Source: Bdellovibrionales bacterium (GTDB lineage: Bacteria > Bdellovibrionota > Bdellovibrionia > Bdellovibrionales > DASUEL01). From it: a stretch of DNA of 64,000 nt. A program made the position numbers and the translations under genes. The DNA is taken from positions 29,838 to 93,837 of the forward strand of contig JBFWOZ010000007.1 in the NCBI GenBank assembly GCA_050250255.1, written 5' to 3'. The notes beneath the pieces were generated by a model that was not told where the DNA came from, searched no databases, and saw only the letters and a program-made list of their open reading frames with translations. Positions 46,653 through 47,858 of this stretch are shown here, piece after piece. Numbering within the stretch: the stretch's first letter is position 1; the number at the start of each line of letters is the position of its first letter.

Positions 46653-46865
46653 CTAGCTAAAAATAAGGTTTTGGAGAGCCCAGAAGCCACCTACAAATAA
46701 ACAAATAAAGCCTAGGATACGATTGGCTTTAAATTGCTGCAGAATAGCTTCGGGAAAGAGGTGCTCCGCTTTCGACACGAGAGGAGAATTCAGAACGAGC
46801 GTCATCAAAATTCCGTAAGCAAAAACGATAAAAGGAAAGTAAAAATCAAGTTCTTGTATCGACAT
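46653..46865 (-). CDS. Small two-TM membrane protein
   Basis: Two hydrophobic helices; SD AAGGGA. Confidence 0.7.
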   Translation of the reverse strand: MSIQELDFYFPFIVFAYGILMTLVLNSPLVSKAEHLFPEAILQQFKANRILGFICLFVGGFWALQNLIFS

Positions 46866-47521
46866 TTTTTCCCTTTCCGTTGGAACGAAGATTGCTAGTG
46901 TCGTGTTCTCTCATCGGAAAAATGTGTCTCAAAATGAACTAGATCAAGGATTAATTTTTTATCTACTGGAATTCATTGAATCCTTTCAAGATTTCTCGAT
47001 TGACATGAAACATGCGCTTAGTCTCGTTGACCCAGAGGATAAATTTTTGTATTCTTCATGTAGAAGGTTTCTGTGTGGCGCGAGCTTAAACATAGTAATT
47101 TTCAACCTAACAAGCATCATAAAGGGGACTGTCCCTGGCAATGGTGAGCAAGCTCAACTCGTATTGAGAAGCCTAAAGTTGCTAAATGGTCTACCGCATT
47201 GAAAAGCACGGGTTGAAATTCAGATGTTTTTACGCCCAACATGGAGCCTTTTTTTTGTTTTCTGCCGTGCCTCCAATTTTCACGCATCTTTCAACGGTTC
47301 TCCTTCCAAAAATCCTCAGCGTACAGAAGTACGCCTCCGGTTTTCTTCAGTCCGAGCCGTTGAAATCTGCATAAAAATTGAAGGCACTTACGCCTGGTTC
47401 CGCGCGTTTTCAAAGCTTCGCTTTGAAACCTGCACGGAGATTGGAAGGCTTACTCCTCGAGTGCATCCTGTAAGTCCGCTCCTCATGAGCGTATGGACTC
47501 CCACAAAGATTTTAAAAAACC

Positions 47522-47644
47522 TTAAGCCCGAATTAAGTACATCAAAAACCAAAGTAACAACTTCAAAATCTCCACGAGATCTTTTCGTTGAATCTTTAGT
47601 TTTCGTTTCCTAGGCCGATAATTACTAACGTTGTTAGTTTTCAT
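47522..47644 (-). CDS. Unannotated 40-aa basic/hydrophobic peptide, candidate type I toxin
   Basis: MKTNNVSNYRPRKRKLKIQRKDLVEILKLLLWFLMYLIRA*; SD AAAGGAGGT 4 nt before ATG, paired with upstream GCCTCCTTT. Confidence 0.6.
   Translation of the reverse strand: MKTNNVSNYRPRKRKLKIQRKDLVEILKLLLWFLMYLIRA
47595..47621 (+). promoter_or_regulatory. Sigma-28 (FliA) promoter inside the 40-aa ORF, antisense orientation
   Basis: TTTAGTTT-N11-GCCGATAA versus consensus TAAAGTTT-N11-GCCGATAA. Confidence 0.7.
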
Positions 47645-47749
47645 CGGTACCTCCTTTCTACGAAAAAGGAGGCTTCGTGCCCCAGACTTACGGGATGCGG
47701 GTGGGGAGATTGCAAAGGGGATTCTGGGTTCAGAGTCCCTTTATTTTTT
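47628..47749 (+). ncRNA. Candidate ~120-nt sRNA antisense to the start/SD of the 40-aa ORF
   Basis: Bounded by the sigma-28 promoter and an intrinsic terminator; carries CCTCCTTT; 5' end estimated from -10 spacing. Confidence 0.55.
47718..47749 (+). terminator. Intrinsic terminator
   Basis: GGGATTCTG-GGTT-CAGAGTCCC followed by TTTATTTTTT. Confidence 0.75.
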
Positions 47750-47858
47750 AGTGGGATAGCTTCTAGCCGAAGGCCGTTTTTTTCTTCATTTTTCCCTTAA
47801 GTTTTTAGCGGAATGTTTCGATATGAGATTGTGGACCTGTGTCCTTGGGGGTAAACCT

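Follow-up and report, generated by a model that had tools for sequence, protein, structure and literature searches.

A diverged member of a multi-copy family in the Bdellovibrio order that resembles type I toxin-antitoxin modules, with putative sigma-28-type and sigma-54-type promoters

In a 64,000-nt stretch of a Bdellovibrionales genome (hereafter the window), a 40-aa minus-strand ORF follows a Shine-Dalgarno (SD) hairpin, and a sigma-28-type box within the ORF on the opposite strand is followed by a terminator. This set of features, first noted in the window alone, is real in the sequence. Comparison across genomes identifies the locus as a divergent copy of a multi-copy family of the Bdellovibrio order, and we think it reasonably probable, though well short of certain, that the module is a type I toxin-antitoxin (TA) system resembling aapA/IsoA. 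The elements of the window copy are as follows.

47522-47644 (-): 40-aa ORF, putative toxin, with a basic N-half (net charge +9) and a predicted helix over residues 14-39
47657-47649 (-): SD AAAGGAGGT, within the SD/anti-SD hairpin at 47649-47673
47673-47665 (-): anti-SD, pairing with the SD at 47657-47649
47615-47647 (-): predicted AUG-burying hairpin formed by 47647-47641 and 47621-47615, the latter complementary to the antisense -10 box
47685-47698 (-): 5′ arm of the 5′-3′ long-distance helix, 14 nt, beginning at predicted +3
47463-47476 (-): 3′ arm of the 5′-3′ long-distance helix, 14 nt, which pairs both mRNA ends
47500-47506 (-): TTGTGGG motif, 15 nt past the stop, common only to the window copy and its five closest relatives among 73 modules
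47711-47725 (-): sigma-54-type promoter, degenerate, with AG at -25/-24 (47725/47724), GC at -13/-12 (47713/47712) and a predicted +1 at 47700
47595-47621 (+): sigma-28-type promoter of the antisense RNA, TTTAG-N15-CCGATA, within ORF codons 8-17
47629-47750 (+): predicted antisense RNA, putative antitoxin, about 120 nt, spanning codons 1-5 together with SD, leader and sense promoter
47715-47751 (+): intrinsic terminator of the antisense RNA, a stem at 47715-47742 and then a T tail

The ORF reads exactly as the original prediction had written it, and its SD is indeed sequestered by the adjacent anti-SD, in a predicted stem of 11 bp and -14.0 kcal/mol. Nested hairpins over the whole 243-nt predicted mRNA (47700 to ~47458, minus strand) would bury the SD, the AUG and the ORF; the fold has a z of -7.5, with none of 150 shuffles equally stable, compared to -5.5 for its reverse complement. 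Among 15 small intergenic ORFs, drawn from 149 AGGAGG..ATG sites in the whole genome, the window ORF has the most stable local fold. The basic N-half of the peptide stands, as its net charge indicates. The C-half had been described as hydrophobic; hydrophobicity is modest (best 19-mer 1.5), and the AlphaFold model gives a helix at residues 14-39, with a pLDDT of 90 over residues 21-40.

The module lies between a 6S RNA gene and a 601-aa gene. The 6S RNA gene (47065-47251, plus strand; Rfam RF00013, 79 bits) stands alone with a T run at its end and is separate from the module. A 120-nt imperfect palindrome at 47267-47387, with a partial third unit at ~47424-47460, is REP/MITE-like; it is single-copy in the window genome and has three relatives in G029 (L021:2077-2291 and L022:1980-2078). 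Palindromic repeats also flank the module of L171. On the other side, a second FliA-type box, TTAAG-N16-TCGATA at 47797-47823 (+), precedes the 601-aa gene, whose true start, judged by eye, is probably downstream of 47823. Further away, a 70-aa ORF at 46653-46865 (-) with two hydrophobic stretches sits immediately upstream of xseA and has no Pfam match.

Sequence similarity did not lead directly to relatives. The window peptide had no match in the protein collection and reached no E value below 0.025 across 300 further genomes of the order, an exact DNA pattern had 0 matches in the genome_contigs set, and a DNA search of 100 relatives gave good matches only to the 6S RNA and, in G029, to the palindrome. 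An architecture scan for small intergenic ORFs behind AGGAGG in the window genome found the 15 ORFs mentioned above, five of which have the window layout (C7:2933, C4:49840, C8:64047, C18:46498 and C2:20696, the last with an internal stop), bringing the genome to six copies. A looser pattern applied to 384 genomes of the order yielded 30 loci with two further clear modules, and a 7-member profile matched in 38 of these 384 genomes. With a 33-member profile, matches were found in 50 of 401 phylum genomes, namely the window genome, 42 of 101 others in the order (up to 10 matches per genome) and 7 of 299 outside it, where all 7 matches are weak. One family copy belongs to a named B. bacteriovorus strain (L171). 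The curated set used below comprises 73 modules, made up of 47 of 53 profile matches and 26 from a later search; it contains paralogues, near-duplicates and broken copies, and 44 modules remain after clustering. The other six profile matches (L103, L106, L110, L132, L133 and L135) were dropped, being without an SD or module features. On this comparative basis the family is new, order-wide and multi-copy, and it looks like a type I TA system.

A promoter-only pattern provided a family test free of peptide bias. It picked out 76 sites, spread over 38 of 121 genomes, compared to 0 for the reversed control. In a sample of 30 loci with 32 distinct sites, 22 were modules and 10 were not; the 22 comprised 13 with family peptides of 33-42 aa (by script), 3 that are family-like (by eye), 4 broken and 2 at contig ends. 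Tandem module copies 0.3-2 kb apart were seen in L094, L095, L129, L198 and G052:C10:127066-131106. P0003, P0004 and L139 are metagenomic relatives of the window subfamily, and the gene calls for P0003 and P0004 begin further upstream than their likely start. No family module was confirmed in viral contigs (two alignments), and no module match was found in named phages and plasmids. Among sequencing runs, X1 may be the source of the window DNA, and X2 from the same study covers part of the module with no differences. One of 24 listed runs is labelled RNA (share 0.04), runs with a small share were left out of the evidence, and four runs compared with the B. bacteriovorus locus gave no coverage of the module.

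The window copy itself is a divergent outlier member of this family, as judged by alignment. With profiles built without it, the window peptide fell outside the top 10 matches, and a DNA profile of its closest paralogues matched it at E = 0.08. Global DNA alignment to its five closest relatives scored 58.8, compared to a maximum of 37.1 for 436 SD-anchored controls (z = 5.6) and of 37.7 for 500 shuffles in the same type of alignment; the peptide comparison to the paralogues gave p = 0.0015. The peptide link from the window subfamily to the large family is marginal (E 0.035-0.075), and the two are joined on the basis of shared anatomy.

The sigma-28 box that had been proposed inside the ORF on the opposite strand lies where it was placed, as TTTAGTTT-N11-GCCGATAA at 47595-47621 (+). 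Only 1 of 113 exact GCCGATAA sites, this one, has a -35 within two mismatches of TAAAGTTT, and the box is one of 4 genome sites with at most two mismatches in total. The genome encodes fliA and has seven flagellin matches, six of them full genes and one weaker; TAAAG-N15-CCGA boxes occur in the leaders of at least three flagellin genes. In the accessible parts of a promoter-mapping study of strain HD100, the motif TTAAG-N16-CCGATA was mapped at 92 of 140 attack-phase promoters, and mapped FliA promoters, compared by eye, pair a TTTAG -35 with 16-nt spacers and TAAAG or TTAAG with 15 (PMC3627812). TTTAG and 15-nt spacers thus both occur there, but in separate promoters. The window copy fits the general FliA pattern of a T(T/A)AAG-like -35, a 15-16-nt spacer and a CCGATA-like -10. 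In the window genome TTTAG-N15-CCGA peaks at 11 vs 3-7; in the whole-genome spacer profile the sole peak was TAAAG-N15 (7 vs 1-3), with none for the other four pentamers.

Across the family, a score with the consensus set beforehand (TTAAG/TAAAG and CCGATA) averaged 8.74 on the antisense strand of 47 modules, whereas synonymous shuffles gave 7.94 and 8.09 (sd 0.12) and the sense strand gave 6.96. With a wider -35 set from mapped variants, picked after the family had been seen, 59 of 73 modules reach 9 of 11 where synonymous shuffles expect 25.9, and 35 of 44 non-redundant modules do so where 14.6 are expected; because family members are kin, set-level statistics such as these are overstated. 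A sigma-70 promoter for the antisense RNA was rejected for want of enrichment (24 vs 24.3 expected). The antisense boxes occupy three main reading-frame combinations with different amino acids, and the anchor arginine is encoded as NNT-CGN in 56 of 65 cases, compared to 24 of 168 for other arginines. Taken alone, the window copy is not significant against synonymous shuffles (p 0.13-0.21), and it also matches sigma-70 at 8 of 12. In 43 of 73 modules the mRNA fold pairs every base of the -10 core, so its conservation may be partly structural.

With the antisense start set 9 nt past the -10, following mapped FliA promoters, the predicted antisense RNA of the window copy has a fold z of -2.8. The clear terminator described for its 3′ end was borne out by the stem and T tail listed above. 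A hairpin with a U-rich tail is found in 51 of 71 modules, in a test that found none in the four close paralogues, as judged by eye.

Promoters recognized by sigma-54 carry GG at -25/-24 and GC at -13/-12. No convincing promoter for the minus-strand mRNA had been found earlier; a box of this type is clear in the family and degenerate (AG) in the window copy. When modules were anchored on TGC(A/T) located 66-86 nt before the ATG, -24 is G in 57 of 63 and -25 is G in 40, compared to 0-11 at six neighbouring offsets; GG..GC occurs in 40 of 73 modules (4.3 in shuffles). The window genome contains rpoN, and GGC-N8-TGC is common in it (169 vs 70-108). On the sense strand, neither a sigma-70 nor a sigma-28 promoter turned up. 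We conclude from these alignments that the sense promoter of the family is probably of the sigma-54 type. The assignment is weak for the window copy, because it has AG, because GG at -25/-24 is absent throughout its six-member subfamily (GA, CG, AA and AA in the four closest paralogues of the window genome) and because AGC-N8-TGC shows no peak in the window genome. We note that G000 intergenic DNA has about 60 canonical sigma-54 boxes, many preceding exported-looking proteins, as in a large sigma-54 regulon.

Folding is a shared property of the modules. In the local folds of 57 of 73 modules, most of the SD is paired. Counted from the predicted start, the first 18 nt bind their own tail at -21.5 kcal/mol, compared to -13.1 with the tails of foreign modules (n = 68), and the own 3′ tail pairs better in 58 of 68 modules; this preference supports both the predicted start site and the long-range helix. 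In equilibrium folds, 3′ trimming does not free the SD, which is paired in 7 of 7 lengths (P unpaired ≤0.01), leaving AapA-like activation by 3′ trimming unsupported. The motif A(A/C/T)GGA, which is CsrA-site-like, occurs 80 times in the 3′ tails, in 52 of 73 modules (27 in shuffles, maximum 44); csrA is present in the window genome, and the motif is absent from the window copy.

The peptide helix is under purifying selection across the family, as indicated by 15 disjoint close pairs with dN/dS of 0.25 past the twelfth aligned codon; up to that codon the ratio is 0.86, with less synonymous change as well (0.20 vs 0.32). This selection contradicts an incidental ORF. Family medians are 39 aa, a charge of +6 and an amphipathic moment of 0.59. 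By synteny, the module behaves as accessory DNA: between a PBP gene and fxsA it is intact in L171, partly deleted in G058 and missing in G066, and the site is empty in G082, G070 and G122. By annotation, the same interval spans 469 bp in HD100, where it holds no annotated gene, vs 571 bp in L171. As with TA loci, copies are often broken and sites often empty.

Several features known from type I loci are found in the sequence, among them a predicted mRNA of 243 nt (within 150-400 nt), a small ORF under selection, predicted SD sequestration and an antisense gene across the translation start that has a promoter and a terminator of its own. The layout proposed from the window alone thereby gains comparative support from the 73-member family; the direct searches for the window peptide added no homologues to it. 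For 33 members, nothing was found below E 0.04 in Pfam, NCBIfam and PHROGs or below E 0.99 among PDB sequences, and no Rfam family covers the module in the window or in the loci of 10 relatives. The best ESM Atlas matches (0.84 and 0.87) are to unnamed clusters and below the usable level.

The closest known system is aapA/IsoA of H. pylori. According to the accessible parts of PMC6733600, PMC8594479 and PMC11951105, both are multi-copy and chromosomal and encode a small basic/hydrophobic peptide; both have an antisense RNA over the 5′ region and ORF start with its promoter within the ORF, anti-SD sequestration, 5′-3′ long-distance pairing and an mRNA of ~225-245 nt. The family promoters are of the sigma-54 and sigma-28 types, whereas for IsoA3 these sources, in the same parts, describe only a -10 box. 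Neither toxin nor antitoxin matches in sequence. The family further differs in that a local hairpin holds the SD and survives 3′ trimming in silico, and in that the antisense RNA passes the predicted mRNA start by ~50 nt. TisB/IstR1 shares a short amphipathic helix, and TisB is the nearest named ESM Atlas cluster (0.77 and 0.82, below the usable level), but its antisense RNA is non-overlapping, whereas that of the family overlaps the mRNA. None of the 33 members matches Pfam TisB (PF13939). The short amphipathic helix is presumably also a likeness to DinQ/AgrB.

Within the same order, APsRNA3, 6 and 7 of HD100 are likewise non-coding RNAs from FliA promoters (PMC3627812), and none of the 8 listed HD100 attack-phase sRNA sequences resembles the window antisense RNA by eye (PMC3627812 Fig. 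S1). A 2010 survey, in its accessible part, counts no type I locus in B. bacteriovorus HD100 (PMC2887945). Fozo's sole HD100 candidate, Bd3114, was rejected because two genomes of that family have no family-like ORF upstream of the second rpsD. In our literature search, which covered largely papers free of subscription, Bdellovibrio had no type I TA, and FliA or sigma-54 control was not described for any; the accessible parts of PMC12622784, PMC8687705, PMC13200544, 10.1101/2020.11.01.364414 and PMC13689555 contain no such system. The pairing of sigma-54 and sigma-28 promoters on a type I-like module is undescribed in the literature covered.

We considered whether the gene and its antisense RNA could be real and the peptide not a self-toxin, being instead a phase-restricted membrane protein or a prey-directed amphipathic peptide. 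In that case the sigma-54 promoter would drive its production within prey, and the FliA RNA would keep it off in swimming cells. The amphipathic character of the family (median moment 0.59), its confinement to a predatory order and the canonical sigma-54 boxes that precede many exported-looking proteins in the window genome (by eye) are consistent with this. We regard it as unlikely, though the best of the alternatives, since a patchy distribution, with vacant syntenic sites, copies in tandem and many breaks, is better matched by a selfish or defensive module than by a core predation tool, the complete predicted occlusion of SD and AUG points to a product whose leaky synthesis would do harm, and no signal peptide is apparent (by eye).

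A less likely explanation still is that the family is TA-like and the boxes are by-products of mRNA structure or peptide sequence, or that the window copy is silent and decaying. The paired -10 core in most mRNA folds, the degenerate -24 of the window copy, the lack of GG in its six-member subfamily and the internal stop in one paralogue are in its favour. Against it, pairing partners vary by subfamily, yet both boxes and the 15/16-nt spacing persist across frames; the ORF, arms, terminator and perfect CCGATA of the window copy are all intact, and TTTAG-N15-CCGA peaks in the window genome. The alternative in the original prediction, a plus-strand trans-acting anti-SD or GGA-rich sRNA over an incidental ORF, has the CCUCCUUU and AAGGAGG motifs of that RNA, its own promoter and terminator and the presence of csrA in its favour, but it is very improbable and contradicted by the purifying selection on the helix, by the family peptide in most promoter-only matches, by the pairing of the two motifs with each other in the plus-strand RNA and by a folded mRNA that reaches ~170 nt beyond the antisense RNA start.

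Returning to the type I TA reading, we propose that a folded mRNA, likely from the sigma-54-type promoter, would encode a basic, helical and likely membrane-damaging peptide, whose synthesis would be blocked by a cis-antisense RNA likely transcribed from the FliA promoter within the ORF. The primary mRNA (47700 to ~47458) would start out untranslatable and be activated by some processing or standby-loading event. The antisense RNA (~47629-47750) would pair across the leader, the SD and the start codon, and the resulting duplex would go to RNase III if the module follows known type I loci.

Published expression values (PMC3627812, in its Table S1, with columns read as attack vs growth phase) are 19 vs 1834 RPKM for RpoD, 990 vs 104 for FliA and 169 vs 271 for rpoN. 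With RpoD low and FliA high, a FliA promoter would be the natural route to an antitoxin in swimming cells: in attack phase, where RpoD is nearly silent, it would maintain the antitoxin. Once FliA output drops, or the sigma-54 promoter is switched on by an activator, the peptide would enter the inner membrane and depolarise or kill the cell. We tentatively suggest a life-cycle-coupled toxin switch on two alternative sigma factors, with a FliA-driven antitoxin RNA in attack phase and an activator-gated sigma-54 toxin mRNA, although we hold this form of the hypothesis to be rather doubtful. A fall in FliA at prey entry, starvation or phage attack might then let the membrane peptide stop, quiet or kill the predator. 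If true, it would show how an RNA-controlled toxin adapts to a host whose sigma factors change from one life stage to the next, and would give access to what lets attack-phase cells of a candidate living antibiotic survive or die. The family supplies natural variants by the dozen, with start sites predicted on both strands, on which toxicity and promoter logic are directly testable.

Other small ORFs behind SD hairpins, outside the family, were seen at L069/L076:1536 (G295), L058 (G331) and L070/L077 (G217). They are 52 and 50 aa long with a hydrophobic C-half and may be further type I-like loci. At G000 C21:19943 (-), a 31-aa hydrophilic ORF lies behind an 11-bp SD hairpin, with a strong terminator upstream.
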